Position numbers and translations under genes: made by a program
From: a virus
Lineage: Duplodnaviria > Caudoviricetes
Length of the DNA stretch: 64,000 nucleotides
Strand: one strand, 5' to 3'
IMG/VR virus record: IMGVR_UViG_2852501635_000002
Location: 9,493 to 73,492 of that record
Notes under the pieces: model-generated
The model's database searches: none
The model's input: the letters and a program-made list of their open reading frames with translations, nothing else
Told to the model about the DNA's origin: nothing
In this document: in pieces, positions 40,600 through 64,000 of the stretch
How positions within the stretch are numbered: the stretch's first letter is position 1
Layout: each line of letters opens with the position of its first letter

Positions 40600-40773
40600 A
40601 ACAGATCCAGTTAGTTTTTGGAGAGTATAGCAGGGTGGGAGAATTGATGGGACGAATTTGGGACAAGCAACATGAAGTAGCATAAGGCAACTTCAAGTAA
40701 CTTTAGGTAAGGTGGGACGTGTGAACGCTTGGTGAGACTGTATTTAGTTGATATTAAAGCATAATTCTACGCT

Positions 40774-40818
40774 CTTCTAAGCCGTAGGTCACAGGTTCGA
40801 ATCCTGTAGGGCGTACCA
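40774..40818 (+). repeat. 3' half of tRNA-Arg(UCU): prophage attR and probable satellite attL
   Basis: CTTCTAAGCCGTAGGTCACAGGTTCGAATCCTGTAGGGCGTACCA; anticodon loop, T arm and CCA present, 5' half absent. Confidence 0.88.
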
Positions 40819-40983
40819 TTCTCAAGTATTTTAACGTCTACAACAGTCCATAAAATCCTTATAAAATCAGCTATTACAAGAATTCCTAGTGTTTCAAGGT
40901 CTAGTTACGTCTATTGAAATCTACATATATGTGGGGGCATAATTGGGGGCATTATCCCGTTCAATGAAAATTGGTGCCCCCAG

Positions 40984-43218: not shown

Positions 43219-43375
43219 ACAAATCAGTTTATTATTGAGATTGTTTTATTTTAAACAACAAGCCCCCACTCAAAAAACACCTTAAAATATAAACCATAAT
43301 ATGCGTTATTAACCTTATACATTTATGTATAGGGTTTTTTCGCATGTCTTTTCATATCACATTAAGGAAAATACT

Positions 43376-43573
43376 ATGAATAATCTGATTAGGCTTTCAG
43401 AGGTTTTGCGACGCACAGGTTACAGCAAAGCTTGGATTTATAGACTAATTAAAGAAAATGACTTTCCTAAACAAGTCAAAATAGGAGCTCGTTCTATTGC
43501 TTTTGTTGAATCAGAAGTAGATGAATGGATTGCTAATAAGATTGCTGAATCACGTTCTGGTGAGGTGGCATAA
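43376..43573 (+). CDS. alpA: AlpA-family regulator/excisionase
   Basis: LIRLSEVLRRTGYSKAWIYRLI..FPK.VKIG.RSIAFVESEVDEWI. Confidence 0.93.
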   Translation: MNNLIRLSEVLRRTGYSKAWIYRLIKENDFPKQVKIGARSIAFVESEVDEWIANKIAESRSGEVA

Positions 43574-43980: not shown

Positions 43981-44814
43981 ATGAAACTAAAAAATAACAG
44001 CTTAAATGCTGGTGGATTCGCTCACCCTGAAAACCACTCTAGCGATATTAAGGAATTATCTTTTGCTGAAATGCTGCCAGTAATTCAGGGAAATATTAAC
44101 GGGCAGATTATTAATGCAGTAAGTGCCAAAGCATTACACGAAGCATTAAGTGTAGGTCGTGATTTTTCTACTTGGATTATTGGCCGTGTTAATGAATACG
44201 CTTTTGTGGAAGGAACGGATTATCAATCAGATGATGACTTTAATATTCGCTGCTTACTTAATGAACAATATTCCCCCGTTTTGGGGAATAATACAAAACG
44301 TGGTCGCCCTGAAAAGGATTACTTATTAACGCTAGGCATGGCTAAAGAATTGGCAATGGTTGAACGTACCGAAAAAGGGCGCTTAATCCGGCAATACTTT
44401 ATCAAGTGTGAGGAAGCTCTACACAAAGTCGCGCCAACAATCACTAAGCAGTTACGGCATCAACTTAAATCACGCCTCAAAGTGGCTAGTTACTTTAAGC
44501 CGATGTGTTCAGCGTTAGAGCTAGCACGTATGGAGCAAGGCAAAAGCACACTACCGCACCACTACACAACTGAGTCAAACATGCTTAACCGAATTGTGTT
44601 AGGTGGACTCACTGCCAAAGCATGGGCGAAGCAGAACGGCATTATTGGCAATCCCCGTGATGCTATGAGCGAAACCCAATTAGAGCACCTTTCATACCTT
44701 GAGCAGACGAATACAACGCTAATTGAATTAGGCATGGACTATCACGCACGCAAGGACAAGTTAATCAGTCTATCTCAAAAGTGGTTAGCGCAACGTGTAG
44801 AGGTGGCGCAATGA
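43981..44814 (+). CDS. AntA/AntB antirepressor-family protein
   Basis: VSAKALHEAL.VGRDFSTWI, DYLLTLGMAKELAMVERTEKG..IRQYFI. Confidence 0.9.
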   Translation: MKLKNNSLNAGGFAHPENHSSDIKELSFAEMLPVIQGNINGQIINAVSAKALHEALSVGRDFSTWIIGRVNEYAFVEGTDYQSDDDFNIRCLLNEQYSPVLGNNTKRGRPEKDYLLTLGMAKELAMVERTEKGRLIRQYFIKCEEALHKVAPTITKQLRHQLKSRLKVASYFKPMCSALELARMEQGKSTLPHHYTTESNMLNRIVLGGLTAKAWAKQNGIIGNPRDAMSETQLEHLSYLEQTNTTLIELGMDYHARKDKLISLSQKWLAQRVEVAQ

Positions 44815-45536
44815 TTACCCTATGTTCAATAAAGGATATTGCCTACCAAGTGAATAATTCTCTACTGGCAGGTAATAACGTAAGTTCAACTTACACCACG
44901 ACTAATACGGTAGCTTTAAACTATGGTATTACGGGCAGTCAATCAGCGAAAATTTACGCCAATCAATCAATCCTAACCACCGTTGGAGGATGGGATAACA
45001 GCGATAACCTAAAACGTGGAGAATTTACACCATTTATTAAAGGTGATTTTTCTCACCTTTCTAAAGTCGGGAAATCTCGCTATTTATCGAGTGAAATTGA
45101 GTTTTTACAGTCCATAAAAAAGGGCGGCCAATCGGCTACCCTTGGGAACGTCGATATTAAATACCGAGCAAGTGAGAACTATAAGAATAGTATTCATCTT
45201 GTTATCGGTAAAGATGACAACCTTGAGTTAATACAAAAATGTGCAATACATCACTTGCACTTATGGGTAATTGTTGGCTATAGTGATCAGGCACTAGCAA
45301 AATCTAGTGTCAGGATTGGCGTTCTGAATTTGTACAAGGCGACACATGACGCGCCTAGCGTCTTTTTTTGTGTCAATGCCTACGCACACCTATTAAATGC
45401 GGTATTATATCGCACCGAATCTATGGTGGCGGCAGCAGAGCAACCGAAAGGTTGGCTGGTTTCCTTGTACGCCAGTAACGCCAACTCTACTGTCGTCACC
45501 ACCCCGAAATTGGCGTTTCTGGTGGTGACTCCTTAG
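44811..45536 (+). CDS. Ash-family ORF overlapping c4/CI RNA, with composite N-terminus
   Basis: GYS..ALAKSSVRIGVL, APSVFF, SMVA..EQPKG motifs. Confidence 0.7.
   Translation: MITLCSIKDIAYQVNNSLLAGNNVSSTYTTTNTVALNYGITGSQSAKIYANQSILTTVGGWDNSDNLKRGEFTPFIKGDFSHLSKVGKSRYLSSEIEFLQSIKKGGQSATLGNVDIKYRASENYKNSIHLVIGKDDNLELIQKCAIHHLHLWVIVGYSDQALAKSSVRIGVLNLYKATHDAPSVFFCVNAYAHLLNAVLYRTESMVAAAEQPKGWLVSLYASNANSTVVTTPKLAFLVVTP
45424..45501 (+). ncRNA. c4 / P4 CI-type antisense RNA
   Basis: Closing stem TGGTGGCGGCAG/CTGTCGTCACCA; loops CCTTGTAC (45463) and AACGCCAA (45477) complementary to GTACAAGG (45332, 45541) and TTGGCGTT (45316, 45510). Confidence 0.85.
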
Positions 45537-48141: not shown

Positions 48142-48486
48142 ATGATAACGAAGAATTTTAAAGTTAATTCACTAGCGAATAGCTACGCAGCTGCTATTTA
48201 CCACGATATTACCACACGTAATGGCGGTGATTGGTTTTCGATGAAGGTAGGCAACAAAACGATTGAAGTTGCCATTATTGACGGTGTGAAAGGTATTCGA
48301 ATGCTCGTTGATAGCTATTTGCTGAAAGCCTTAAAAGGGCAATATCCCACATGGGAGGCAGTTGCTATTGGCTTGATAGAGCAATGTGTCATTAATGGAT
48401 ATGTCACAGGTTATGGTCGAGAGGTGTGGCAAAGCATGATTAATGATATGGGCGACTCTTTCGCTGATAAGGGGGCGTTTCAATGA
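48142..48486 (+). CDS. Hypothetical protein
   Basis: ORF coupled to primase. Confidence 0.65.
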   Translation: MITKNFKVNSLANSYAAAIYHDITTRNGGDWFSMKVGNKTIEVAIIDGVKGIRMLVDSYLLKALKGQYPTWEAVAIGLIEQCVINGYVTGYGREVWQSMINDMGDSFADKGAFQ

Positions 48487-51203
48487 AGCCGATTGATGTT
48501 ATCCGTGAGGTGAAGCTGAAAGCTAACGGACAATGGCAAGCTATATTATCTCACCTTGGGGCAGAAGTGCCCCTAAACACGCACACGGCTTGCCCTCATT
48601 GTGGTGGTAAAGACCGGTTTAGATTTGATAACAAGGACGGTAATGGCACGTTTATTTGTAATCAGTGCGGTTCTGGTGATGGATTAGATCTCGTTCAGCG
48701 TGTGTTAGGTGTCAGTGTAACCGAAGCTGCAAAAGAAGTTGCTAACATAATTGGTATTGATACCCGTTCAGCGTGTCCACCAGCCTACCGTCGTTCTGAG
48801 ATAAAAGCACAACAAGACGAACTGAAAGCGCAGCAAGCCGAAAAACAAGCTAACGAGAAGAGAGAGAAGCATAAACGCTTTATTGAACGGTATAACCGCA
48901 CTATTGCCAATGTTCAACGTGGGAGATCTGACTATCTCAAGGCTAAGGGGCTGCATGGTTTTGAAATGGATTTATTACAGGACGGTTCTCTTATCATTCC
49001 ATTATTGGACGCTGGTGGCGTTATTACTGGCGCACAAACTATTAAGCCTAATGGTGATAAGCGTTTGCTGTCAGATAGCGCAAAGTCAGGCAGTTATTAC
49101 CCCATCAATGAGCCTGTAAACGTCTCTACGGTGATTATCGCTGAAGGATTAGCAACCGCCCTAACGTGTCACTTAATCCAACCAGAAGCGCACACAGTTG
49201 CGGCAATTGATGCGGGAAACCTCATTCATGTAGCTAAGGTAATGCGAGTTAAGTATCCAGAGAGCAAGATTATTATTGCTGGGGATAACGATATTAAGCC
49301 AGGCCAAGACAATACAGGGAAATTAGCGGCAGAAAAGGCAGCTAAGGTGGTTAATGGTGTCGCTGTTTTACCCCCTACTGATGATAAAGCCGATTGGGAT
49401 GACTACCGCCTATCACACGGTATTGATGCGGCAAGACAGGCATTTAATGAAATATTAGAGCAGCAAGGAGGCAAGGTGATGATAGAAACTAGGGTAAGCA
49501 ATGAAGTCGTTAAACCTGACCCAATGAAGCCACGCATTGAATCACGTAAAGAGGGGGTATTTCTTGTTACACCGAAAGCCGACAAGGAAACAGGGGAAAT
49601 CATCAATCATGAGCAGTGGTTATCAAATGCTATCAAGCGGATCACTAAAGGTGTTAATGACCTCAATCAAGAGTATTTGATTATTGAGTGGGGGAATAAC
49701 AATGTTCAGGCAATACCGACAGGCGATATAGGAGAGCGTGAAGGATGGCGCACATTAAAAAACGCGGGGTTATTTGTCACTACCAAATCAGGATTAAGAC
49801 AGTCGTTTTCTGATTGGCTGTTACGTCAACCATTCAAAGAGGACTGGAGTATTACGAATAAATCAGGTTGGCACAAAGGCGCATATATCATGCCCGATGG
49901 TTCAATTATCGGCACACCTGAACAACCGATATTTTTTAACGGACAAAGCGCAGCAGCAACTGCCTACAAAGCAAGTGGAACGGTGGAAAGCTGGCGAAAT
50001 GATGTAGCGCGATTGGCTAACGGTAATAGTTTTATGATGTTTACGATTGGCGCCGCATTATCTGCACCGATGACGAGTCTTACGGGGGCTGACAGCTTTG
50101 GTATTCACATTTACGCTCAATCGACAGCAGGGAAAAGTACCACGGCAGATATGGCCGTGAGTTTATACGGTGATCCTGATTTACAGCGCTTAACATGGTA
50201 TGGCACTGAATACGGTATGACTAACGAAGCTGTAGCGCACAATGACGGACTTTTGTATTTGGATGAAGTCGGACAAGGGGCAGACCCTAAACACGTCTAC
50301 AAATCGGCTTACACGCTGTTTAATGGTAAAGGTAAGATCCAAGGTGCGAAGGAGGGCGGCAATAGGCAAGTTCAAAGCTGGCGGACAGTGGCCATTAGTA
50401 CAGGAGAAAAGGATATTGAGACCTTTTTATTAAGTTCGGGTGTGAAAGTCAATGCAGGGCAGCTAGTACGATTACTCAACATCCCTATTGAACGCGCCAC
50501 TGAACTACATGAATGTGAAACAGGGAAAGCCCACGCAGATTTAATTAAGATAAATTGCCGTTCTAGCTATGGGGCCGCAGGACGTTATTGGATTGAATAT
50601 CTATCAAATCATAAAGATGAAGCTAAAGAAGCCTATAGAACTGCACAACAACGCTGGAGTAAATTAATTCCGAGCAGTTACGGAGAACAAGTTCATCGAG
50701 CCAGTGATCGATTCGCTACTATAGAAGCGGCTTTGATAATGGGCCGTGTGATTACTGGCTGGAATGAACAAGATTGTAAGGATGCTGTTCAAGCCGCGTT
50801 TAACGCTTGGATTGCTGAGTTCGGCACAGGTAATAAAGAGATTGAACAGATTAAAGATCAGACGATCGCTTTTTTAAGTACGTATGGAATGAGTCGATTT
50901 GCTCCATTGCCTTATGATGAGCAATCTTTACCTATCAGAGAACTTGCAGGGTACAGAGTTAAATCAAACACGCAGGATGAAGCGCCCATATTATTTTATA
51001 CATTGCCAACAGTATTTAAGAACGAGATAGCCAAAACGTTCAATACGGACACTTTCGCTGATGCCCTGCATAAACTAGGTATTTTAAAAAAGCCTTCCAA
51101 TGGGAAAGGATATCAAGGCAGAACACCGCGTTTGAAACATTTAGGCAACATTCAGCAACGCGCCTATATTTTGATGCTTGTTCCTGATGAAGAGGAGGAG
51201 TGA
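48483..51203 (+). CDS. Primase-helicase (P4 alpha zinc finger, TOPRIM, DUF927)
   Basis: CPHCGGKDRFRFD..CNQCG, AEGLATA, AGDND, QSTAGKST, LDEVGQ. Confidence 0.93.
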   Translation: MKPIDVIREVKLKANGQWQAILSHLGAEVPLNTHTACPHCGGKDRFRFDNKDGNGTFICNQCGSGDGLDLVQRVLGVSVTEAAKEVANIIGIDTRSACPPAYRRSEIKAQQDELKAQQAEKQANEKREKHKRFIERYNRTIANVQRGRSDYLKAKGLHGFEMDLLQDGSLIIPLLDAGGVITGAQTIKPNGDKRLLSDSAKSGSYYPINEPVNVSTVIIAEGLATALTCHLIQPEAHTVAAIDAGNLIHVAKVMRVKYPESKIIIAGDNDIKPGQDNTGKLAAEKAAKVVNGVAVLPPTDDKADWDDYRLSHGIDAARQAFNEILEQQGGKVMIETRVSNEVVKPDPMKPRIESRKEGVFLVTPKADKETGEIINHEQWLSNAIKRITKGVNDLNQEYLIIEWGNNNVQAIPTGDIGEREGWRTLKNAGLFVTTKSGLRQSFSDWLLRQPFKEDWSITNKSGWHKGAYIMPDGSIIGTPEQPIFFNGQSAAATAYKASGTVESWRNDVARLANGNSFMMFTIGAALSAPMTSLTGADSFGIHIYAQSTAGKSTTADMAVSLYGDPDLQRLTWYGTEYGMTNEAVAHNDGLLYLDEVGQGADPKHVYKSAYTLFNGKGKIQGAKEGGNRQVQSWRTVAISTGEKDIETFLLSSGVKVNAGQLVRLLNIPIERATELHECETGKAHADLIKINCRSSYGAAGRYWIEYLSNHKDEAKEAYRTAQQRWSKLIPSSYGEQVHRASDRFATIEAALIMGRVITGWNEQDCKDAVQAAFNAWIAEFGTGNKEIEQIKDQTIAFLSTYGMSRFAPLPYDEQSLPIRELAGYRVKSNTQDEAPILFYTLPTVFKNEIAKTFNTDTFADALHKLGILKKPSNGKGYQGRTPRLKHLGNIQQRAYILMLVPDEEEE

Positions 51204-51236
51204 TTTCTTTCACGTCAGGAAAAAACGCTAATTATG

Positions 51237-51612
51237 GTTGTCTCAGTTGTCTCAATAAGAGAATAGAAAAGATAACTTATTAATATTTATAGTTATTATG
51301 ATTATTTTCTGAGACAACCCTGAGACAACATAAGCCCGTTTTGAGACAACCTAAGGCGTTTTTGAGACAACGCTGAAAAGTTTAGGTTAGCCCTTGGTTG
51401 GTTAAAAAAGTGGGTGAGACAACCGAATCAAAGGCTGAGACAACACGGTAATGAGAAAATAACCCTTAAAAATCAATTTATTGTAAAAATAAGGCGTGGG
51501 TAATCATGAGATTGAGACAACTCAAAATCATCAAGTTGTCTCAGAAAAAATATTTAATATAGCTTAATCAATAGGTTGTAAGTATTGAGACAACTGAGAC
51601 AACTGAGACAAC
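51237..51612. repeat. Replication origin: 13 TGAGACAAC iterons (10 direct, 3 inverted) plus IHF-like site
   Basis: Direct at 51310, 51321, 51342, 51363, 51415, 51436, 51513, 51586, 51595, 51604; inverted at 51237, 51246, 51535. Confidence 0.9.
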
Positions 51613-51658
51613 CCCTGATCGCGTATCTAATAAAAAGTTTTTTGAGGAAAAAGAAATA

Positions 51659-52113
51659 ATGGTCAGAGTGACTTTCTTATTAAGAAAAGATAACAATAAT
51701 GTAACCCCCCCCCACCAGCAACGAACACACCAAAAAGCGCACGGACTAAAAGGTCACAGGAAGCCTCAAAGCAATCGAAGAAGAAAAATAAGGCAGATGC
51801 TCACGCTAAAAAGAAACAATACCGTATCGACCGTATAGCGAAGCACTGGACGATATTTAATGAACCAGAGGCTAAACCACTGATGATAGGCATCAAGGAA
51901 GTCATGATTGCTGAGGTTAAAGATAAAGGGTTGGATATTCCAGAGAGCCATATTAAACAGGGATTACGATCATACATTAGTCGTAAAACCTATCTAAAAG
52001 CTCTTACTCTGGGCGGTAATCGTTTTGATATGAACGGGCGTCCTAAAGGAGAAATCACACCTCAACAACAAGCATTAGCAAAACAAATGCTGGTGGAATG
52101 GGCTAAAAAATAG
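51659..52113 (+). pseudogene. ProQ/FinO-domain gene frameshifted at a C9 tract
   Basis: KPLMIGI...LRSY.SRKTYLKAL..G..RFDMNG.PKGEIT; ATG 51659 joins this frame only with C10 or C7 at 51705-51713. Confidence 0.7.
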
Positions 52114-52187
52114 CAATGTAACAACCGCCAAAGCATAAACTGAGGTGATTATGTATAATTTGCCTTATCAACTAAAAGGATCACTAA

Positions 52188-52700
52188 ATGAAAAAAATCA
52201 TGATAACGGCTCTATTGGCTTTATTTTTATCGGGATGTGATAACAACCCGCCAGCACCCTACGGGTTTAAGTGGGGGCAGACTGTGGCGGATATACAAAA
52301 ATTAAATATTGCTGGCGCTAGCGAGTGCAAAGACCCAGCTTGCTCTATTATGGTAACACCTAGCGGAGCACATGGATTAACAACATTAATTTTCTATAAA
52401 GATTCAGGATTGGCACAAGTGGTACACTCAGAGCCACTGAACGAAACCAACAAAGATGATGTAATGGCAAGGTTTAATCATATTAGTAATGAGTTGAAAT
52501 CAATTTATGGTAATCCAACCAGTGAAATAATACGTATTGATGATGAGAATAACTTTATTGACTGTTTAAAACAAATTAGCTGTAGAGATATCAAGGCAGA
52601 ATATAACAAAGATGGTTATCGGGCATTTATCTCAATAGGAACGAGAAAAAAAGACGGGAGATTATTCATTTTCACCGATCACCAAAGACCTCTAAAATAA
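52188..52700 (+). CDS. Lipoprotein
   Basis: LSGC lipobox; APYGFKWG. Confidence 0.8.
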   Translation: MKKIMITALLALFLSGCDNNPPAPYGFKWGQTVADIQKLNIAGASECKDPACSIMVTPSGAHGLTTLIFYKDSGLAQVVHSEPLNETNKDDVMARFNHISNELKSIYGNPTSEIIRIDDENNFIDCLKQISCRDIKAEYNKDGYRAFISIGTRKKDGRLFIFTDHQRPLK

Positions 52701-52711
52701 GCTATACAAAC

Positions 52712-52735
52712 AAGCCGACCTTGAGTCGGTTTTTT
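52712..52735 (+). terminator. Intrinsic terminator
   Basis: AAGCCGAC-CTTGA-GTCGGTTTTTT. Confidence 0.7.
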
Positions 52736-52871
52736 GTTCTTATAGCCCCTATCATATTAATTTTTATAGAAATCTCCCTGTTTTATAGTCGTTTGTATTA
52801 ATCAATTATTGATTATTTTTTAATCCATTATATAATTGTATTGTATATAATTACAGGTTGGATAAATAAAC

Positions 52872-53045
52872 ATGAGTAAGCAAAAAAGAACCTTCAAGCC
52901 AGTGTCAATTGATAGTGAAATAATAGAACGCGTCAAAAAGTTTAAAGAAAAACAGGGTGAAAAAGATTTTTTCATTCAACGAGCACCTATTAGTCAATTA
53001 ATTCAAGGGTTACTAATTAATGCCTTACATAACGAGGGATTCTAA
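52872..53045 (+). CDS. Small RHH-like protein heading the tail operon
   Basis: Hand translation MSKQKRTFKPVSIDSEIIERVKKF...PISQLIQGLL. Confidence 0.6.
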   Translation: MSKQKRTFKPVSIDSEIIERVKKFKEKQGEKDFFIQRAPISQLIQGLLINALHNEGF

Positions 53046-53386
53046 TGGAAAAATTACAACGGTTAGCAAGCACTATAGCCCAGATTTATGTTGATAATTT
53101 AAAAGCTGAAACAGGAGAAACATTAGTAACTTATAACGGTATCACAGGTAAAGTTACCCCTGAATTACTGGCCGCTGGATTGTTTGATAATGCGGTATTT
53201 GCGGTTAAAGCGGATGGAGAAGAGATTGACGTTGAAGGTAAGGCGTATGATTTACTATCCCCGTTAATTAACTTATCAACAAAGCCTTACTCCCTAACGG
53301 GACAGGCATATAAATTGATTAATTTTCTCAATGTGCAGGCACTAAAAGCAGGAAGCACTTTATCAACCTTATCAGTTGTACATTAA
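53045..53386 (+). CDS. Hypothetical protein directly upstream of satellite TMP
   Basis: TAATG-coupled ORF; possible chaperone by position only. Confidence 0.65.
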   Translation: MEKLQRLASTIAQIYVDNLKAETGETLVTYNGITGKVTPELLAAGLFDNAVFAVKADGEEIDVEGKAYDLLSPLINLSTKPYSLTGQAYKLINFLNVQALKAGSTLSTLSVVH

Positions 53387-53402
53387 TCACAGGGAGAAAA
53401 TT

Positions 53403-56400
53403 ATGTATCATGGCGAAGGTTACACAGTATATGTAGATGCCGATACGGCCGGCCTTCTTGAGGCTAACCGTGAAATCGAAAAAGCAAGAAGAAAAATAAA
53501 TGATTTAGGCAACGAAGCAAACACCACAAGCAAATCATTTACTCAATTCAATAAATCAGCAATCGCGGTTTCCAGTGCGTTAAAAATGCCTGAAATAAAC
53601 CGCTTATCACGTCAAATGAGTGAATTGGCGGGGCAAATTGGCGCTGCTTCAATGGCAACAGATAAGGCAACGACTGTTAACGCGCGTTTTACAGGTGTGA
53701 TTAGCAATGTGTCTGGGCTACTAGGGGCGGGATATGTTTCTAATATTGGTAGCGCTACTGTTTCGCTCTTGCAACATACTCAAGGGGCAATTAATGCCAC
53801 ACAAGCCGAGGTTTTACATACTCGCGCTATTCAAATGAAGGCTCAGGCATTGCAAGCTGCTGCCTCCCAAGAAGTGATTAACGCCAAAAATCTTAAAGCA
53901 TCAACACAAGCAGAGCTAAAAGCAGCTCAGGCAGCGTTAGAACACGTTTATTCATTAGAAGGCTCTAATGATATCAAGCAGCGTAATTTAGAGTCACTTA
54001 GGGCACGACAGGCAGCAGTGCTCAAGGATGCTGAAATAACTTATCAAATGACTGCGAGTGAAGAAAATTTGCAGCGAGTGACTAAAGCCAGTAATGCGCT
54101 ACATGCTACGGAAACTAAAATAAAAACGCATTTAGCTACAACCGGAAAAGAAATTGCGCTTGTTGAGGCTAGAGTCGCTAAAGCAAAAGAAGCAGAAACA
54201 CTAGCAACTCAAAAATTAAATGCGGCATTAGCATTAGAGCAAAAAGCGAAAGCCACACTAGCCACTACAACAGACGCGGTGACCGTAGCTAATGGTCGCG
54301 CAGCCCAAGCGGCTAGAAGTCAATCCATTGCTATGCAAGGATTGCGAGGTGTTGTGGGGTTATTAGGTGGCCCAACGGGTGTTTTTATGTTGGCTACTGC
54401 TGGCGTGTATGCGCTATATAACGCGATGAATGATGACACCGCAACGAAAGAGTTTAATGACAGAGTAGATCAGTGGATTGATAAAATTGACGAACTGTCA
54501 GCCAAACAGGCTCGCGCTGTGGCTAACCGCTTAGGCGAGAAGATAGCGGAAACAACCACACAACTAGAGGGACAGAAAAAAAGTCTTTCCAGTGTTAATT
54601 CAGATCTAAAAAGATATGAAAATAGACTTGCTGATATTAATAAAGAGATTCAAAGACAAAAAGAACAAGGTTTTGAAGTAGGTAAGTCTTACGTTCAGGA
54701 TGATATAGTAAAGGAAATCGAAAAACTCACCAAGAAACAGCAGCAGTATGAGCTGATTATTTCAGAAGGTGAGCAGAATATTCGTCGCTGGACGGTATCA
54801 CAAGGTAAAGCCGCTAATATTGCAAAAGAGAGAGCAAAACAAACAGACGAACTCAGCAGAGCGGAATTAATTTATCAACGCCAAGCTAAAGGGATAGTTG
54901 ATGCTAACCAACAATTAGCTAGATCACTAGAGCTAGGCAGTGACGCAGCCGTTAAGAAAGAACAAGCCATCAAAGAGTTAGAAAAGGCTTTAATTGCTGA
55001 TGGTTTTGTTAAAGACTCCGAGTTATTTAAACAAAAAATACAAGAGTTAACGGATGAGCTTGATAAGAAGGCAAGTTTAAACCTTGCTAACTCTCTTGCT
55101 GAGATAGAGCAACGAACACAAGCCCTCACTATTGGCATGAAAGACGGTAAGCCTGCACTGGATGAATACAATGCCTCGTTACTGCTTATGCAAATGGGGA
55201 TAAAAAAAGGTTCGGCTACCTACAATACCGAACTCCCGAAAGCGATAGAGGCAATACGCAATTTACGTGAAGCTCAAGAAGCCGCACTAAATAGCAAATC
55301 AAATGCTAACAAGTCGTTGAAAGCGATTAATAAGGCAAATGATGCCATTAAAAAACAACAGCAACAGACTGAGACGTTAAGAAAAGAATTTGAATTATTG
55401 AGTTCTGGCGCAGCTAACGTAAATAGAGAGATGGCTATTTTTAACGCTGTTCAAAGTCTGGGTGCTGATGCGACAGACAAGCAAAAGAAAGCTATTGCTA
55501 AAGAAGTCGCCGAAGTTTTTGACCTCAAACAAAAAGTCGATGACTTTATTAAGTCGCAAGAAATTACTCCAGAGTTAAAACTTGCAAGAGCATTTAGACA
55601 AGAATCTGAAGAGCTTAAACGCATGTTTGATAATGATTTCATTGATGAAGAAACGTTTAAGGCGTTAGGCAATAAAGCAATGAAGGCATTTGATGCTGGA
55701 ATGGCTGAAATAAAAATAAACGCGGTTATTGACCCAATAACTGAAGCCAAAGGGCAATACGACCCGATACAAGCACTGGCTAACGAACACGCTAAGAAAC
55801 TTGAGATGATCCGCCAATTCGAAACAGAAAAAGGCGCTATTACTCAGCGTGGCTTAGAGTTAATGAATGCCGCTAATACTCAATATGAGCAAGACCGGTT
55901 AAATGCTCAATGGGAGATATGGCGCAATCAAAGCCAAGCCAATCAATTCTTAGCTGATGGGTTGGACGCATTAGGACAGCGCTCTACTAACGTACTCACA
56001 GGGCTATTAACTCAAACACAATCCATTAACGATGCTTTCCGTAATGTCGCCTTAACCATCGTAGACCAAGCCGTTGGCGCTCTGGTCCAAATGGGTATGC
56101 AACAAGTTAAGAATATGATTATGGGTGAAAGTATGGCGACAGCCGCTCAAGCATCTGCATTGGCTCAGGCTGCGGCAGCACAAGCGGCATGGGCACCAGC
56201 GGCATTAAGCGCATCAATAGCCACATTAGGCGCAGCAGTAGCAACGGGAACATCATCATATACGGCGGCTATGGCAGCTAGTAAAACGATGGGGTTGGTT
56301 GCTGGTGCTCGTAAAAATGGTGGACCCGTAAATGCTGGCTCTATGTATCGAGTGGGTGAAGGTGGTAAGCCTGAGATATTCAAAGCATCTAACGGTAGTC

Positions 56401-56633
56401 AGTACATGATACCGGGTGATAATGGTCGAGTTATTAGCAATCGACAAATGGGTAAAGGTGGTAATGGTGTCAGCATGGGTGATATGAACTTTACATTCCA
56501 AGTTCAAGCACCTAATGGCATTACTCAAAAGGAGGCGCAACAAATACAGCAAATGGTGAGAGGTACGGTTTATGACGTACTTGGTAACGAAATGCGTAGC
56601 GGTGGTGCTTTGGAAAAAGTAAGAAGTTGGTAA
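53403..56633 (+). CDS. Satellite-encoded tape measure protein
   Basis: Ala-rich coiled coil, LLGGPTG, C-terminal blocks nearly identical to prophage TMP. Confidence 0.88.
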   Translation: MYHGEGYTVYVDADTAGLLEANREIEKARRKINDLGNEANTTSKSFTQFNKSAIAVSSALKMPEINRLSRQMSELAGQIGAASMATDKATTVNARFTGVISNVSGLLGAGYVSNIGSATVSLLQHTQGAINATQAEVLHTRAIQMKAQALQAAASQEVINAKNLKASTQAELKAAQAALEHVYSLEGSNDIKQRNLESLRARQAAVLKDAEITYQMTASEENLQRVTKASNALHATETKIKTHLATTGKEIALVEARVAKAKEAETLATQKLNAALALEQKAKATLATTTDAVTVANGRAAQAARSQSIAMQGLRGVVGLLGGPTGVFMLATAGVYALYNAMNDDTATKEFNDRVDQWIDKIDELSAKQARAVANRLGEKIAETTTQLEGQKKSLSSVNSDLKRYENRLADINKEIQRQKEQGFEVGKSYVQDDIVKEIEKLTKKQQQYELIISEGEQNIRRWTVSQGKAANIAKERAKQTDELSRAELIYQRQAKGIVDANQQLARSLELGSDAAVKKEQAIKELEKALIADGFVKDSELFKQKIQELTDELDKKASLNLANSLAEIEQRTQALTIGMKDGKPALDEYNASLLLMQMGIKKGSATYNTELPKAIEAIRNLREAQEAALNSKSNANKSLKAINKANDAIKKQQQQTETLRKEFELLSSGAANVNREMAIFNAVQSLGADATDKQKKAIAKEVAEVFDLKQKVDDFIKSQEITPELKLARAFRQESEELKRMFDNDFIDEETFKALGNKAMKAFDAGMAEIKINAVIDPITEAKGQYDPIQALANEHAKKLEMIRQFETEKGAITQRGLELMNAANTQYEQDRLNAQWEIWRNQSQANQFLADGLDALGQRSTNVLTGLLTQTQSINDAFRNVALTIVDQAVGALVQMGMQQVKNMIMGESMATAAQASALAQAAAAQAAWAPAALSASIATLGAAVATGTSSYTAAMAASKTMGLVAGARKNGGPVNAGSMYRVGEGGKPEIFKASNGSQYMIPGDNGRVISNRQMGKGGNGVSMGDMNFTFQVQAPNGITQKEAQQIQQMVRGTVYDVLGNEMRSGGALEKVRSW

Positions 56634-56699
56634 TTAAAAGCGTGGATAAAAACCATAATAGGGCAGATTTCTGCCCTTTATAGTATTGAAGGGTACATA

Positions 56700-57068
56700 A
56701 TGATAAAGATAAAAGTATCTAAAAGGAAAGGTCGCAATCAATCATTTCTACAATATTGCCAGCATGTAGATCAACGAGTATCACGGGCTATGCAACGGTT
56801 TCTTTTCGATGCTGGAGCACAATCCGCAATTTATACGCCTATCGATACATCAACATTGATTAATAGTCAGTTTAGGGATGTTACTGTTAATGGTACAAAA
56901 ATAACGGGACGTATTGGTTACTCCGCCAGCTATGCCGTTTATGTGCATGATCCGAAAGTTAAGCAGAAATTTAAACGACCAACAGCTAAAAAAGAGTTCT
57001 TGAAAAAAGCGGTCGAGGAAACGCTACCTAATTTAACTAAGTATATTCATGAAGAATTGAAGAGTTAG
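56700..57068 (+). CDS. HK97 gp10-like neck/tail-completion protein (homolog of 23558-23929)
   Basis: YTPIDTSTLINSQFR..TGRIGYSA.YAVYVHDP.VKQKF.R.TAKKEFLK shared with prophage gene. Confidence 0.88.
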   Translation: MIKIKVSKRKGRNQSFLQYCQHVDQRVSRAMQRFLFDAGAQSAIYTPIDTSTLINSQFRDVTVNGTKITGRIGYSASYAVYVHDPKVKQKFKRPTAKKEFLKKAVEETLPNLTKYIHEELKS

Positions 57069-57075
57069 CCTTCAT

Positions 57076-57095
57076 ACTTTCGTGAACAGTACGCG
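57076..57095 (+). promoter_or_regulatory. Putative pac-site mimic
   Basis: 20/20 identity to terS 16005-16024. Confidence 0.65.
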
Positions 57096-57433
57096 CGTGG
57101 AAGGAAATATGCAAAAAACAACCAAAAAGAAACCAACCATTATTTTTATGATGTACCGACAATGCGCCTAATTGTGACGTGTGAACAATCCATCAACATT
57201 CACATAAGAGCCGATAGAGTAACAGGGGCAATCATGAGGAGTTTGTGAGGCAAGCAATCATTGAGAAGCTAAAAAAAAGCAACAGCACAAATAGCTAAAT
57301 CGCTATATGTATGTGTCAATAACTTGGTTATAGCTATATATATTGTGTTTACGTTAAAAAAATAGACAGGTAATTACAAGCTCATAATGATTAGCCCCTA
57401 GACAAGATAAATATATTCAGTATTATTTATCCC

Positions 57434-57500
57434 AACAGTGCCCCTCATAACCTCTACGTAGAACGGAGAAATCTGGTTTGCGATACGTTTGGGGCTTTCT
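57434..57500 (+). ncRNA. Candidate RNA antitoxin upstream of Abi gene
   Basis: Nested stems, TAGACA-16-TATTAT promoter at 57399-57426, T-rich tail. Confidence 0.6.
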
Positions 57501-57533
57501 TTTATCTACTATCTGATAATTTTCCATGCTGCT

Positions 57534-58529
57534 ATGCACCCTCTAAAACCTCATCTAACGTATTTTGACCAAATAAAAAAGCTAGAAAAACGAGGAATGA
57601 GTTTTGAGGATCTACCTCCTGAGCAGGCGGTAAAGAAAATAATGAATATTGGATATTACAGGCTATCTGGGTATTGGTATCCATTCCGTAAGTTAAAGTT
57701 AATCCCACCAGTAGCACCCGATGAAGCCAGACGTGAAGAAACATTCCTTGAGGGTACAACCTTTACAACGGTATACGCACACTATTTATTTGATGTAAAA
57801 CTAAGAAGTTCTATTTTTTATGGAATAGAACGAATTGAAACTTATCTTAAAGCAAAAATAGCTTACGAACTAGGTAAAGTATCCCCTACGGCATACAAAG
57901 ATAAGAATATCATCCAATACAGACATCACTACCGACATGATACATGGCTAGAAAAGTTAGATTCTTTAATAGAGCGAAATAGTGATAAAGATTGTATACG
58001 ATGGAATTTAGATAAGTATGGGGATATTCCTATATGGGCTATCGTTGATATTTGGGATTTCGGTACAATGTCTCGCTTCTACGGAATGCTTGAAGATAAA
58101 TACAAACATCAAATTTGTAAATCGCTTGGCTTTCTAAAGCCTAACTCAGCAAATGTAAGAGATGGACTGAAAACAGCATTAGAGCACCTTAATACAGTTA
58201 GAAACAGGTGTGCCCACCATGCGCGTTTATGGAATACCGATTTTTCAGACTCAAAAATTAGCATCGATGTGTTAGATAATATTGATTTAACAGCCTCGCG
58301 CTTGTCTCCAAAAAGCCCTGAACTATCAAGAATGGCAGGTATCATATTTTTAATATGGAGTCTGACCAAGAGAATAAGTTGTAATTCTACATGGCTAAGT
58401 TCAGTAAATGATCATTTAGAAAAACATCAGGGCGTTATTCCGTTTAATTCAATGGGATTCGATAATAACAATATCTCAGGATTAAAAAATCTATTGGATA
58501 AGGAAAAAGAACAATCAGCCCAATCATAA
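57534..58529 (+). CDS. Abi_2 (AbiD/AbiF) HEPN abortive infection protein
   Basis: IGYYRLSGY, IERIE, PIWAIVDIWDFG, RNRCAHH (RxxxxH). Confidence 0.92.
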   Translation: MHPLKPHLTYFDQIKKLEKRGMSFEDLPPEQAVKKIMNIGYYRLSGYWYPFRKLKLIPPVAPDEARREETFLEGTTFTTVYAHYLFDVKLRSSIFYGIERIETYLKAKIAYELGKVSPTAYKDKNIIQYRHHYRHDTWLEKLDSLIERNSDKDCIRWNLDKYGDIPIWAIVDIWDFGTMSRFYGMLEDKYKHQICKSLGFLKPNSANVRDGLKTALEHLNTVRNRCAHHARLWNTDFSDSKISIDVLDNIDLTASRLSPKSPELSRMAGIIFLIWSLTKRISCNSTWLSSVNDHLEKHQGVIPFNSMGFDNNNISGLKNLLDKEKEQSAQS

Positions 58530-58810
58530 GCCAACCCAAATCAAATAAACTTTAATGATTTTCAGGCGCGCTAGCAATAAGTTTTCGGACACGTTAGAAA
58601 GGTTGTAAATAGAGGCTGATAGCGACAAATATAGACATTAAATCCTAACAAATCCTAACGTTTTTCTAATACCTAGATCCTAAGTTTTCTTAAGGTAAAT
58701 TGCGCATTCAATGCTAAGATTTGCTAAGGTTTTACTATCCACTTAGTATTATGATTAGATAGCTGATAACTTCAGTATATGTTGGGAGTAGCTGTAATGA
58801 TAAAACTAAT

Positions 58811-59482
58811 TTGAGAATAGAAATGCTAATAAATAAATTAAAAAATAAAAATGAGTCACCAGAAGACATTATAGAGAATTTGATATATGCCTATCAAAAC
58901 TCAAGAGAAACATATGTTGAAAACAAGAGAGTGTTTCGTGGGCGTAGTCATTCTGTCTCGGGTATTTTTGAAGATCTATTTGCTGATTATTTATCAAAAA
59001 ATTTACCTGATAGTAATCAATATTTCGTAGACCAGCAGTTGTTTTCATCAGCAGCAAATATACGATTTTTCCCAGATATATTAATTATGAATGATAAAAT
59101 AAATCGCGATATCATAGACTTAAAGCTTGATTTTGGATGGTCTAGAAATGATGTTTTTTCATTTTGTGATACGTGGAATAAAAAAATAGATAAGTTAAAA
59201 GGAACGAGTTTCACTTTCAATGATGGGATAACTAAAGAAAAAAAGAATGGTTTTTTTTCTGATAATTTAAAATATCATGTAGTAGTTTCGACAAAATTAA
59301 ATAATGGAAGTAATTTTATTGAAATAAAAGATAAAGTGACAAAAAATTTGGAGCATGTTGAGTTATATATACTCACTGACAAGGTACATCCGAATGATTA
59401 CAATAGCACTGCCGAAGAACGGGTAAAAAATATACATATATGCATGAGTGAATTTTCAAGGTTAATGAATAATTTATCATAA
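58811..59482 (+). CDS. Hypothetical protein, possible PD-(D/E)xK nuclease
   Basis: FEDLFA...FPDILI...IIDLKLD; very AT-rich. Confidence 0.55.
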   Translation: MRIEMLINKLKNKNESPEDIIENLIYAYQNSRETYVENKRVFRGRSHSVSGIFEDLFADYLSKNLPDSNQYFVDQQLFSSAANIRFFPDILIMNDKINRDIIDLKLDFGWSRNDVFSFCDTWNKKIDKLKGTSFTFNDGITKEKKNGFFSDNLKYHVVVSTKLNNGSNFIEIKDKVTKNLEHVELYILTDKVHPNDYNSTAEERVKNIHICMSEFSRLMNNLS

Positions 59483-59594
59483 TAATATAATTCTTTTAGT
59501 TCTTAACGGACAAAAATATAGTTTAAATTGTCCGTTATTATAGATAGCAAAATTCGGTGATAACAAATTTTATACGTTAAAATCAATAGTTGCT

Positions 59595-60023
59595 TTAGTC
59601 CTGCAAATAATTCAATTTATTTACTATATTCTTGTGACGCCTCCATGCAGAATAGATATCTTTATCCCACGCTTTACCTGCCTTAGTTTGATAGCCTGCC
59701 TCATTAATCCGTTTAGCAATAATGCGCCCATTGGCTACACCCTCAGACAGTACAGAATTAACCACAGAAATGACAGCAGACTCATTATAGGTATAAGGTG
59801 GGATATCTGCCTTGCCAGCAATTAAAGATGCGAAAGACGATTCTAGGCGTTCCACCAGCGACAGTATGCGAGCGTCAGGATTACTGTCTGGGCGGTTTAG
59901 CTTCTCCTTGATAGCAGAGACTATCCATGCTGTTTTATCGCTACCAGAGTTCGATGCAGCATCATTAAACAGGGTTTGTAGTTCAGCAGGGAGACGAAAG
60001 GCAATAAGATTAGATTTACTTAT
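59595..60023 (-). CDS. RHH-like protein with recombinase-type DNA-binding tail; apparent start codon is ATA
   Basis: Open frame from ATA 60023: SKSNLIAFRLPAELQ...IAKRINEAGYQTKAGKAW. Confidence 0.55.
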   Translation of the reverse strand: MSKSNLIAFRLPAELQTLFNDAASNSGSDKTAWIVSAIKEKLNRPDSNPDARILSLVERLESSFASLIAGKADIPPYTYNESAVISVVNSVLSEGVANGRIIAKRINEAGYQTKAGKAWDKDIYSAWRRHKNIVNKLNYLQD

Positions 60024-60833
60024 GATAATAGTCCGTTATTAACTCAGTGAGCGCTTATTATATCAGCGTATAACACTGTTATACAGATTAGAAAATATAT
60101 CATTGCTAGTGGATTTAATGAATAAGTCCATAACTTAAAGTTAGAGTAACCTACTGTAAAACAAGCAAAGCGTATTCTTGCGCCTTGTAACGGATTGAAT
60201 ACATAGCAAAGCTCAAAAATGAGTGCTGTACTGTGGTGATTATCGCCATAGTCGGAAAGGGTAACAGTTGAAATGCTACCCTTGGTATCAAAACCACAAA
60301 TTAGTGATTTTAGCTAAAGTAGCTAAATATTAGCCAATACAGCTAACCACATAAACATAGTGGTACTATGATGATCCGTTGACTTTCAAACGTGAGGTAT
60401 CCACTAAGGTATCCACCGAAAAGGCTATATTTTACTGGATACTTTACCCACTAAATGTTGACAATTGTTAACATCAGAACCAGACAAAACCTGACATCAT
60501 TTACTTATTTTAGGTACGCAATAAATACGTATTTAATTCTCGCAATTCACTATAATTAAATAAAATCATGGTATTACATAAAGGTATGCAGAATAGTGCG
60601 CATTGAAATGATATTATTCGCATCGGTAACTATTTGATTATCCCGAGGCCGTCACTTTGGGGCGTACTGAAATAGCGTATTTCAATCTGCTAACGTGGTT
60701 GCCATTTTGATGGTTGCCACTTTGGTTGCCAGCAAAACGGCATATTTTACGCTAGTGGATTGATAACCTTTGATTGTTCCAATTCAGCACAATCAAGGTA
60801 TGGCGGAAATAACCACTCCTTTGAGGTATAGCC

Positions 60834-61022
60834 ATGTTACAACGAGAAACAATAGAAGCCGTTATGATGGAGTTAGCCCACCAGCAAGGGCATTCACTCA
60901 ATGGGCGTGATCGATTAGCGATTAGAACAGGTGTAGCACAGACAATGCAGGCTAAAGAACGTCACAGACGAAGAATGACAGCACCTACCTACCAATGGAC
61001 GAAGCCAGCACCAAAAAGATAA
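60834..61022 (+). CDS. Small hypothetical protein inside the site array
   Basis: RBS GAGGT, 62 aa. Confidence 0.6.
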   Translation: MLQRETIEAVMMELAHQQGHSLNGRDRLAIRTGVAQTMQAKERHRRRMTAPTYQWTKPAPKR

Positions 61023-61547
61023 TAGGTCGCCTTGAAATTAAGGGGACGTGAGGCTCTGAAATCGGAGGCTCGTCACTGGCTGGCAATATTCCAATAATGG
61101 CTACGAGGTAAAAGTAACCACAATGCAAATAAGCACTCTGGATAAATATCAATAAGTTATCTATGCTGAGAGATAAGATTACAACAAAGAGCGACGGCAA
61201 GATTACGGCAAGGTATTAACAATCAGGTTTCAGTCGGTCAATTTGACCGTTAGCAATAAAAACAATGTGTTGCCAACTCTTACCATTGGTCACTGAAACG
61301 ATGACCAATGAGCGTTAATCTGGTTTTGTTACAGAATTAAGTATTATCAATCAGTTGTATTTTGATTCCGTCGATTTACCGGAATTAAGTATAATCAACA
61401 GGTTATATCTACATACGGGATAATCCCGTATCATCATGGATAAATTAACGTTTAGATCACCCCTAGAAATTGGAATTATTACCTATACAACCTGAATCCT
61501 ACCAGTGTTTTATTTTAACCAATAGCTTATATTGTGATGGTATCAAG

Positions 61548-61835
61548 ATGAATAAACCAAAAATGAGAAAAGCAAAATCAATCAGGATCACCACATCAGG
61601 AACGGTAATCAAAGCACCTGAGCGAGTTAAAACAGCCACAGGTAAAGTTATGGCCACAATGACTATTCAGGCTGAGAGTGACAAGCGTAGCCCGTACCCA
61701 TTAAAGATAGTGGCATTCGATATTAACGCGCTGGAGCTAATGACCTGCCAGAAAGGAAACAAAGTAACTGCTACAGGTCGCTATGAATGGTTTAATGGTT
61801 ATCAGCTAACAGGGGCGCAGATAGTTGCTGGTTAG
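61548..61835 (+). CDS. OB-fold ssDNA-binding-like protein
   Basis: SGTVIKAPE, IVAF..AL, KGNKVTATGR. Confidence 0.6.
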   Translation: MNKPKMRKAKSIRITTSGTVIKAPERVKTATGKVMATMTIQAESDKRSPYPLKIVAFDINALELMTCQKGNKVTATGRYEWFNGYQLTGAQIVAG

Positions 61836-62146
61836 TAAAACTTAGTATCAATAGTTACATTAGGCTACTGGCCTACTTATACGCTTGACGTTAATGTTAT
61901 ATAAATTAATTTCTATAAGTCCGAATTGAGCATGGTTAAATGTACGCTAAAGTTAGTTGTATCAAAACTTACATGATGAATGAGATAAAAATATCCAGCA
62001 ACTATAGGTAACTATATAAGATGTTTTTGTTGGTCTAATGGCATATTTTCTCTGTATTTATTCGCTTCTGGCATTTTAGCCTTATAGGTTAGATTCAATG
62101 TGGGTCGATAGACTTGCTTGGATAACAACCTAAGAGAAAGCTTAAA

Positions 62147-62332
62147 ATGAATGATACAGATTTAATACTAGAAACTGATGTTTACAAATGGTTAGGACTG
62201 AAGCGTACGGCATTATGGCGACTAAAAAAGAAGCATGAATTTCCTCTCCCTGTTTTATACCGACCAGCAAAATATCGTAAATCATTAATTCAAAAGTGGC
62301 TTGATGATGGCGGGGTGAATAGAAAAAAATGA
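62147..62332 (+). CDS. AlpA/excisionase-like HTH protein
   Basis: VYKWLGLKRTALWRLKK..EFPLP...KW. Confidence 0.75.
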   Translation: MNDTDLILETDVYKWLGLKRTALWRLKKKHEFPLPVLYRPAKYRKSLIQKWLDDGGVNRKK

Positions 62333-62423
62333 ACACAGATTGAATCATACTCTCAGAATTTATAATTTAGTTGAGCTACCCTGAAAAATTCGAGGTAGTT
62401 CTCACTAATCAAAGAGGATGGTT

Positions 62424-62722
62424 ATGGAAGATGATTCACTTTTCATGGTAAAGGAATATGCAGCACTGCTTAAGCTTCTGAGTCGACTGTTTATAGAAAC
62501 CCAGCTAAGTATCATATGTTCCGTGTTGGCAGGTCATGGCGCGCCAGTAAAGAAAGCTTGAAACGATTTGAACAAGCTCAATTTGATAACAATCGCGATT
62601 ACCCAGCTGTCTTAACCCATAAAAGACAAAAAAAGGCTGATTATAAGAATAAATATGAGATTAGGATGCAAAGTGATGTGGCAAAAGAATTAGATAGGCT
62701 GTTATTTAAAGATACTAAATAA
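62424..62722 (+). pseudogene. Excisionase-like HTH gene with 1-nt frameshift near 62472
   Basis: MEDDSLFMVKEYAALLK joins ASESTVYRNPAKYHMFRVGRSWR in another frame. Confidence 0.6.
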
Positions 62723-62887
62723 AAATCAATTCCACGGGCAGCTGGTTAAATAACCATGTAACGATACTTAAGTTATATCGTTATGATGGAATATTAAGTA
62801 TACATAATAATAAAGTTGTATTTTATAGTTTTTGTAATCAATAGATAAAGATTAAACAGACTAGGGAATATTTTATGTAACCAAGTA

Positions 62888-64000
62888 ATGGAGATTAAAA
62901 TGAGTATAGTTTATGTGCCATGCATAAAAAACGGGATGAATGATATAAAGGCTTTATTAAATTTAAAGGAAGAGTCATCAGGTTATGTCATGCCTCTAGT
63001 GTTAACAGCAGGAACGCCTTATGGAGGGAATGGTGTAGATTTAAAAAAAGACTACTTACTAGATGAGTTTATACATAATTGGGATAAGCCATTCATTGTA
63101 GATGCCTCTAGGGCTGATTCAGATAGTGAGTCACTTTATAATTCCTACCACAACCTGACATCACAGCACGACAATTTTTCGGGTAAAATCACTTACTATT
63201 CAAGTATATATTCAATAAATAAAAAATTAATTCCAGCTATAAGTTGGCAGCTAAATGATGATATGAGAAATATTGTTCAACTCTCTCTGTATTTAGAGCA
63301 GCAATATGAAAAAATAGCAATAATCATTGATCCTAATAATAGTGAGAATTTAAATAGATTAGATACGTTGCTTTGTTTGTTTAAAGATAACTCAAGAATT
63401 ATTGTATTGCTTAATTATAATTCTATATATAACAAAGAATTACCTCAAGAGCATAAAGTTTTACCAGTGATTAGTAAATTAACCTCGCGTGGAGTGGGGA
63501 GTATAGTATTACTAAGTTCTTCATTCCCTCCAGTAAAACCTGCAATAAAAGATACATGGATACAGTCAGAGAACACTGATCTACTGTGGCAACTAACAAT
63601 GATGAATAAGTCACCCAGAGATAGCGTTATCTTATATGGTGATTATTCAGCCACATCACCTAATTCAGCAACAGAATATATACAAGGGATGCAAATAATT
63701 CCAAGTGTGACTTATTTTAGAGGCGGTATTTGGTATCAAATAAAATCAGGTGTAGACAAAGAATTTTCAAAATATAAAGACATAGCAAACGAACTAATCA
63801 GATTGGATTTCTTTCATGGCTCAACATTTTGTTGGGGTGCTGAAAATATTTATGATATTGCAACCAATAGAGACAGGAAAGGAGGCACCCCAGGAACATG
63901 GAATGGGTATAAAATTAATGTTCATGTAGAGGAAACGATCAGAATTTTAAAAGACTATTACAGTACTCCACTTGAAAATTACGATGAAGATAGTGAATAG
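62888..64000 (+). CDS. Beta-family protein (T4 beta-like)
   Basis: YVPCIK...AL, SSSFP, YGDY, W...H pattern. Confidence 0.7.
   Translation: MEIKMSIVYVPCIKNGMNDIKALLNLKEESSGYVMPLVLTAGTPYGGNGVDLKKDYLLDEFIHNWDKPFIVDASRADSDSESLYNSYHNLTSQHDNFSGKITYYSSIYSINKKLIPAISWQLNDDMRNIVQLSLYLEQQYEKIAIIIDPNNSENLNRLDTLLCLFKDNSRIIVLLNYNSIYNKELPQEHKVLPVISKLTSRGVGSIVLLSSSFPPVKPAIKDTWIQSENTDLLWQLTMMNKSPRDSVILYGDYSATSPNSATEYIQGMQIIPSVTYFRGGIWYQIKSGVDKEFSKYKDIANELIRLDFFHGSTFCWGAENIYDIATNRDRKGGTPGTWNGYKINVHVEETIRILKDYYSTPLENYDEDSE

Follow-up and report, generated by a model that had tools for sequence, protein, structure and literature searches.

The window analysed here, 64,000 nucleotides of an IMG/VR provirus record, contains a prophage and, next to it, a second element with the gene content of a satellite. 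The question raised by this locus is why twenty nucleotides of the small terminase gene of the prophage are found again, letter for letter, in non-coding DNA of the second element. The sequence ACTTTCGTGAACAGTACGCG was present in two exact copies, at positions 16005–16024 and 57076–57095, both on the plus strand, and the scan of the window returned no third site with up to two mismatches. The full 73.5-kb provirus record contained the same two copies and no more. Two or more matches of the 20-mer were observed in 0 of 100 dinucleotide-preserving shuffles, and by arithmetic two stretches of 40.7 and 23.3 kb are expected to share about 0.002 exact 20-nt matches by chance.

The first copy corresponded to nucleotides 164–183 of terS (codons D55–A61) and encoded (P)DFREQYA in frame; we propose it as the pac recognition core of a helper-type phage. 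The second copy, the candidate TerS recognition site or pac core on the satellite side, started 8 nt past the stop codon of ORF 56700–57068, and no ORF of 50 or more amino acids ran over it. Among satellites the conservation extended to position 57097, which is the 20-mer followed by CG. Comparison of the satellite half with the prophage by blastn gave 20 identities out of 20 and no extension (E 0.005, or E 1e-5 when the terS region was the only target), and in tblastn the TerS protein matched the satellite half with E 0.2 at the position of the 20-mer and nowhere else. The original prediction of an exact intergenic copy of terS nucleotides 164–183, in the same orientation and with no further terS homology nearby, was thus borne out.

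The prophage and the satellite-like element

The prophage occupied positions 1 to approximately 40.7 kb, with a GC content of about 40%, and corresponded to a siphovirus-like, pac-type phage with an Sf6-type TerS. Its terS gene (15842–16282, plus strand) matched PHROG 1482 (E 5e-56), and the protein aligned by phmmer over residues 1–125 with PDB entries 4dyq, 3hef and 4dzj (E about 1e-53), so that the homology to Sf6 gp1 was full-length and included the N-terminal HTH domain. The large terminase gene terL (16245–17507, plus strand; PHROG 3717 and PHROG 2) was followed by a portal gene (17507–18862; PHROG 146). The DNA identity of terL was 82.5% with Providencia phage PSTNGR2lys and about 73% with ES18-like phages. 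The tape measure gene was located at 30771–34163. Late-gene transcription of the prophage points towards the satellite, which follows it directly downstream (16005 to about 64000). In lateral transduction, P22 packages in situ rightward from pac; if the same happened here, which is speculation, a first headful started at 16.0 kb would take in the whole satellite.

The second element started at 40.98 kb and reached at least 64 kb, a size of at least 23 kb; its right end and attR lie beyond the end of the record at 64000. A tyrosine integrase gene formed the left end (40984–42195, plus strand; Pfam Phage_integrase, Arm-DNA-bind_3 and Phage_int_M), followed on the same strand by a gene for an AlpA-family, excisionase-like regulator (43325–43573; PF05930, E 7e-21) and by AntA-type and Ash-type antirepressor genes recognised by Pfam (43981–45536). 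Inside the antirepressor region Rfam placed an isrK-like RNA at 45291–45368 (RF01394, 65.7 bits) and a C4 antisense RNA at 45419–45506 (RF01695, 71.2 bits); the two RNAs in the Ash-type part (45291–45506) resemble the c4-ant immunity module of the P1/P7 style. An ORF6N gene preceded the replication gene, a primase/helicase with zinc ribbon, Toprim and DUF927 domains (48483–51203, plus strand; Pfam, and PHROG 1139 with E 5e-159). The repeat search showed, just past the primase gene, inverted iterons with GTTGTCTCAG units (51236–51613), which are perfect inverted repeats of 19–21 nt and likely mark the origin of replication. A gene for a 76-aa protein with a ProQ/FinO domain came after the iterons (51883–52113), and for ORF 52188–52700 Pfam gave a lipoprotein signal only.

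A tail module occupied the next part of the element. The tape-measure-like gene (53376–56633, plus strand; 1085 aa, PHROG 1107) contained the DNA repeats D1 and D2, and the C-terminal 419 residues of its product were 42% identical to the tape measure protein of the prophage (BLASTP, E 4e-79). The gene next to the 20-mer (56700–57068, plus strand; PHROG 5) encoded a tail-completion protein like HK97 gp10, with 59% identity over 98 aa to the product of the prophage ORF 23558–23929 (tblastn, E 3e-35). The same arrangement of a tape-measure-like gene and one small variable gene was observed in other satellites (window 53376–57068; locus L089, 1–2015; locus L102, 10341–13680), and the tape-measure-like genes of different satellites belonged to three different PHROG families. 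In locus L084, this gene shared 95.9% identity with window positions 33240–33384 over 145 nt, and 75–87% elsewhere. The existence of tail modules with nearly identical phage patches suggests tail hijacking or remodelling and recent recombination with helper-type phages.

Beyond the 20-mer, a variable cassette (57099–58579, plus strand) that is not present in sister elements contained an AbiD/Abi_2 gene (57489–58529; Pfam Abi_2, PADLOC AbiD), a frameshifted remnant of an RHH gene and a repeat of 75 nt that also occurs in the prophage. The RHH (CopG-like) gene was intact in locus L336 (17100–17250), where it stood immediately before the terS-like site; the remnant in the window (57150–57300) and in close relatives of the window stood after the site. 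The 75-nt direct repeat linked 57429–57503 in the cargo with 11435–11509 in the early region of the prophage at 96% identity, and a 44-nt inverted repeat linked 61117–61160 with 11532–11575 in the same two regions at 95%. The 75-mer was also found in unannotated DNA of three Proteus phages (87–88%). These repeats may correspond to a common cassette border or to a regulatory element. The cassette was followed by a conserved non-coding block (58580–58696, plus strand) with a TTTTCGGACACGTTAG motif and TCCTAAC repeats, which in most satellites lies beside the terS-like site. A second conserved non-coding block, with three TGGCAACCA units on the minus strand, was located at 60640–60740. Near the end of the record (62147–64000) we observed a second small AlpA-like ORF and, running off the end, a defence-hotspot cargo gene of the P4 “beta” type (62888–64000, plus strand; PF14350, PADLOC beta/PD-Lambda-2_C).

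Among the satellite ORFs tested against Pfam and PHROGs there was no match to a capsid, terminase or lysis family. The same searches and tblastn yielded no terS homologue, several small ORFs being without a known family; on the searches run, the element is a satellite without a small terminase of its own. No att sites were found: the best direct repeat between 40250–41050 and 51000–64000 measured 13 nt, and the window contained no tRNA gene. From this gene content we infer an integrative, phage-dependent satellite.

Conservation of the 20-mer and of its terS alleles

The scan of IMG/VR for the exact 20-mer returned 22 stretches, 13 of them within terS and nine non-coding. The left flanks of the nine were unrelated, corresponding to the end of the gp10-like gene in six loci, a hairpin in two and the end of another gene in one. 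Two right flanks were observed, in five and four loci respectively, and left and right flanks occurred in four combinations. The same gp10-like protein is encoded in six IMG/VR loci. Each of them had the exact 20-mer, and past it their DNA took two unrelated forms which diverged after 3 nt. The two right-flank forms differed by the cassette 57099–58579 and rejoined at 58580. The scan of GTDB species added two exact copies, one from Providencia sp. Me31A and one from Providencia heimbachae ATCC 35613, and both stood between flanks of a new kind. The Me31A copy was still identical at 20 of 20 positions, although the end of the upstream gene and the spacer of 6–7 nt had diverged. Counting copies of the 20-mer and of other terS alleles in IMG/VR and GTDB together, at least 19 non-coding copies were found at 15 or more loci; their left flanks were of at least five unrelated kinds, and their right flanks of many.

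The primases of the elements with the exact 20-mer were 52–99% identical to that of the window, and the tape-measure-like genes that the 20-mer follows in these elements fell into three PHROG families. Starting from the primase, nine of 22 relatives (59–99% identical) had the exact 20-mer 4.7–5.9 kb downstream of the primase gene, and 12 had no motif within the DNA fetched. In one of the 22 the match fell inside the primase gene; such matches, at loci L283 and L336, were set aside as probable chance.

The comparison of contigs, which reveals structural variants only, located the same borders. One contig joined 57095 straight to 58580, and contigs from two unrelated runs broke at 57095–57098. 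Because the flank forms switch and the contigs break at this place, the 20-mer appears as a conserved island with a recombination junction at either edge, and the variable defence cargo begins right after it, at 57096–57099. The signal was thus conserved across satellite variants in variable surroundings, and the comparative data show the pattern of selection, not that of a scar.

The terS alignment comprised 28 loci, of which 21 were unique, and the stretch of seven codons had been fixed beforehand by the match with the satellite. The synonymous background was counted as changed codons out of those encoding the same amino acid. Three diverged terS lineages of the Providencia type were compared. 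In L120/121, none of the seven codons showed a synonymous change for a background of 55 out of 100 (0.45^7 = 0.004, by arithmetic), and in L114, likewise, there was no change in seven for a background of 37 out of 104 (0.046, by arithmetic). In L118, one synonymous change was tolerated in the seven codons, which for a background of 30 out of 100 was not significant. The longest run identical to the window terS in L114 (26 nt) and in L120 (22 nt) was the 20-mer itself, and in L120 amino-acid changes were present on either side of it. This codon constraint fits a cis-acting role of the 20-mer DNA in the phage.

The search was extended to other terS alleles with degenerate patterns, which gave at least 111 stretches. 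In the GTDB scan of 401 genomes, allowing up to three mismatches matched 62, and a reversed-pattern control matched, on a rough count, about as many; therefore only hits with two mismatches or fewer, or with checked context, were used. One candidate, L328, was rejected as an unrelated coding match. Part of the apparent invariance of TTTCG..A..AGTACGC is by construction, because the search patterns came from terS.

A second satellite lineage, with integrases 33–70% and primases 50–57% identical, carried a site between the int gene and an ash or ORF6N gene. The site reads AGTTTCGTGACCAGTACGCG in L202, L329 and L324, and L326 has a variant beginning with CATTTCG. Together with the preceding G, AGTTTCGTGACCAGTACGCG corresponds to the terS allele of at least eight phage loci and of G176. 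Locus L323 had a mismatch at position 1. Two copies were found in at least four loci, L260, L272, L322 and L329, the distance between them being 45 nt in L272, 62 nt in L329 and 2.2 kb in L322, and in three of the four loci the copies were two different terS-type alleles; L260 had no recognisable satellite gene within 4.6 kb of its two copies. L322 (G248:C1), with copies at 12517 and 14759, combined the allele of the window with ACTTTCGAGACCAGTACGCG, an allele that the terS genes of L327 and L221 also have. In L272, the first copy had the form ending in GACAAGTACGCG, as in Sf6 nucleotides 162–182, where the Sf6 allele is GATTTTCGCGACAAGTACGCG, and the second was identical to the terS of L252 over 20 nt. 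The presence of two alleles may reflect the use of two helper lineages or the cooperative binding of a TerS ring.

The first allele was found in satellites of 36–43% GC and in phages of 42–43% GC (two at 53%), and the second in satellites of 46–53% GC and phages of 47–51% GC. Elements from hosts of about 50% GC thus carry the terS allele of the phages from those hosts; in this comparison, related satellites are non-independent, and the allele differences, C to G and A to C, raise GC and so also go with the GC of the host.

A candidate packaging signal and its alternatives

We consider it probable that the 20-mer at 57076–57095 is a functional cis site, copied from the recognition (pac) core that the helper TerS would bind within its own gene. 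The idea draws strong support from the combination of a sharply bounded island in mosaic satellites, the matching of terS alleles and the synonymous constraint in terS. In the model that we propose, a helper with this type of terS grows in the cell and the satellite excises and replicates. The TerS ring of the helper would then bind the satellite copy of its own site and recruit TerL, which would cut nearby, and headful packaging would load satellite DNA into helper capsids. The steps of TerS binding, cleavage and packaging are inferred from sequence comparison. Work by Leavitt and colleagues in 2013 reportedly placed the Sf6 pac within the part of gene 1 encoding the DNA-binding domain. In terS, the 3′ edge of the corresponding part is where the 20-mer falls. 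The putative assignment of the terS segment as the pac of the phage draws its support from the synonymous constraint and from this Sf6 work.

The original prediction went further, in that the satellite would be packaged by the unmodified terminase of its helper, the neighbouring prophage. Its central part found strong support, namely an intergenic 20-mer which appears to be a selected copy of helper terS and to act as a packaging signal; the “unmodified” terminase and the neighbour as helper stay conjectural. In the satellites the site is accompanied by TTTTCGGNCACGTTAG, by TCCTAAC repeats and, in L336 and L322, by an RHH gene; because of these satellite-specific companions, a satellite factor could take part beside the terminase. 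Against a pac copy directed at the neighbour, four other records of 60–73 kb with a satellite and an adjacent prophage were without an Sf6-type terS, as were two Providencia genomes with the satellite, and none of the eight isolate-genome identifiers of IMG/VR satellite carriers recurred among the terS loci. A satellite and its helper need not reside together. A matching phage was seldom found alongside the satellite, and the prophage of the window may therefore be a helper by coincidence of integration and not by rule.

The position of the site, precisely where the variable cassette begins, would also be explained if the 20-mer were a recombination footprint or module boundary, that is, a microhomology used in satellite–phage or cassette exchange and kept by descent or gene conversion, with no role in packaging. 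Satellites do recombine with this phage type, as seen in the L084 tape-measure-like gene, and the 75-nt and 44-nt repeats are two other short links between the cargo region and the prophage. A scar should however decay and leave a graded homology in its flanks, whereas the 20-mer was intact and its edges abrupt across elements with primases 52–99% identical. The 22 exact matches included no hybrid junction between a terS flank and a satellite flank, and neither the duplicates with two alleles nor the synonymous constraint in terS is expected of a scar. We regard this origin as unlikely. Chance, which the length of merely 20 nt might invite, is an explanation with almost nothing in its favour, given the shuffles, the expected number of matches and the recurrence of the non-terS copy, between varied flanks, at 15 or more loci.

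The remaining explanations keep the 20-mer as a functional site and change its purpose. TerS or another protein, such as the RHH protein or a factor recognising the TTTTCGGNCACGTTAG motif, might bind it as a decoy that titrates TerS and so interferes with the helper, a sensor of late proteins of the helper or an operator. The 20-mer is regularly found beside satellite-specific motifs that the prophage is without, the RHH gene abuts it in L336 and L322 and leaves a remnant after it in the window, and satellites are described as interfering with helper packaging in the ICP1 work (PMC11417361). Yet these motifs and the RHH gene shift or vanish (L324, the second copy of L322, L329) and the terS-like core stays constant, and TerS is the only protein for which a reason to recognise a coding segment of terS is known. 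A decoy would moreover share with a pac mimic the step of TerS binding, and bound TerS would normally recruit TerL. A purpose outside packaging thus seems improbable to us. An antisense RNA from the minus strand, pairing with the helper terS mRNA and repressing it, would have perfect complementarity over 20 nt, and a GC-rich hairpin, possibly a two-way terminator, lies beside the site in L089/L093 and in P. heimbachae. The flanks are however unrelated between carriers, so that no promoter or terminator is conserved, and the left flank in the window is the end of a coding gene without a hairpin. The minus strand of 57096–58092 gave no sigma-70-like promoter and the site no Rfam match, and we judge such an RNA very unlikely.

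Returning to the site as a copied packaging signal, its reach may be wider than this locus. A tentative generalisation, for which we would claim somewhat less than an even chance, is an undescribed, Enterobacterales-wide family of satellites, with integrase, AlpA, primase-helicase, a tape-measure and tail-completion module of their own and a defence hotspot. They would hitch-hike on pac-type phages via a bare copy of a TerS core of about 20 bp, which would track the local terS alleles, some elements carrying two. If true, the natural variation defines the DNA target of Sf6-family TerS as approximately TTTCG-N-GA-NN-AGTACGCG, and the copies are a natural “minimal pac” of 20 bp, stripped of coding context, in several alleles mirroring those of terS. 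Among small terminases, Sf6 gp1 serves as a structural model, yet the specific binding of Sf6 TerS to pac was, according to a review, weak and hard to quantify in vitro (PMC9611059). A 20-bp candidate with natural allelic variants makes the DNA specificity of Sf6 gp1 directly testable. As a bioinformatic rule, orphan terS fragments in satellites would pair satellites with helper types and locate pac sites.

Comparison with known packaging-signal mimics

Known cases of packaging-signal mimicry by satellites involve cos (P4, SaPIbov5) and, among pac phages, a single system (PLE/ICP1). A satellite family with an Sf6-type pac mimic is apparently undescribed, and likewise the intragenic origin of the mimic, the allelic tracking and the two-allele elements; our literature search found nothing on satellites with tape-measure genes or an Sf6-type pac mimic. 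The phage side of the match would follow P22 and Sf6 in having a short asymmetric site inside the small terminase gene, TerS being here a close homologue of Sf6 gp1. In P22, pac is described as a 22-bp site inside terS gene 3 (PMC9611059, PMC7672466). With the recognition site inside terS, TerS and its site travel together. Sf6 itself differs in having another allele at this place.

Gram-negative PICIs have an int-alpA-primase core with a terS/ppi/rpp module, in about 10–15 kb. The core is present here, no packaging or capsid module was found, and the element is at least 23 kb in size with homologues of tail genes. A parallel in this group is the EcCICFT073 type, which is also an Enterobacterales island with integrase, AlpA and primase needing a helper terminase. 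There, by the mention in PMC11417361, the satellite protein Rpp redirects the helper TerS to the cos of the PICI and so alters its specificity, whereas the identity of the present site with helper sequence, 20 of 20 positions with other alleles in other lineages, argues for an unchanged TerS specificity. Neither an Rpp nor a Ppi homologue was identified, several ORFs being of unknown function. Passive use of helper TerS and TerL via a copied packaging signal would be a feature in common with SaPIbov5 and EfCIV583, named in the same paper (PMC11417361) as PICIs carrying a helper packaging signal; these are Gram-positive PICIs with another gene content.

P4-like satellites are defined by sid, psu and delta and by a cos shared with a P2-like helper. 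No match to the sid, psu and delta families was found in any ORF searched, and the neighbouring prophage is of the pac type, with an Sf6-type TerS. It does have the integrase, the AlpA-type regulator, the alpha-type primase-helicase and the “beta”-type cargo gene. P2 and P4-like satellites have, in the account of Rousset et al. (2022, PMC9122126), no homology other than cos, which lies directly beside the defence hotspot. The present site shares both properties, as the only helper homology of its kind beside a hypervariable defence hotspot. The differences are that P4 uses cos and not a headful pac, and that this element has tape-measure-like and tail-completion-like genes.

A further parallel is given by the PLE satellites of the Vibrio cholerae phage ICP1, in which 14 bp identical to the ICP1 pac are needed for transduction (Boyd and Seed, NAR 2024, PMC11417361). 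As reported in that study, the 14 bp lie within an 89-bp region of 71% identity, are 100% conserved among variants and are non-coding (PMC11417361). Both cases have a short identity to a helper sequence, in PLE the packaging signal and here its putative equivalent, in non-coding DNA and conserved among satellite variants. No packaging proteins like Gpi, GpsA or GpsB of PLE were identified in this element. The identity here covers 20 bp with no similarity in the flanks, the copy of the phage is part of the coding sequence of terS and not of an intergenic pac region, and the proposed helper and its satellite are both temperate elements of Enterobacterales.
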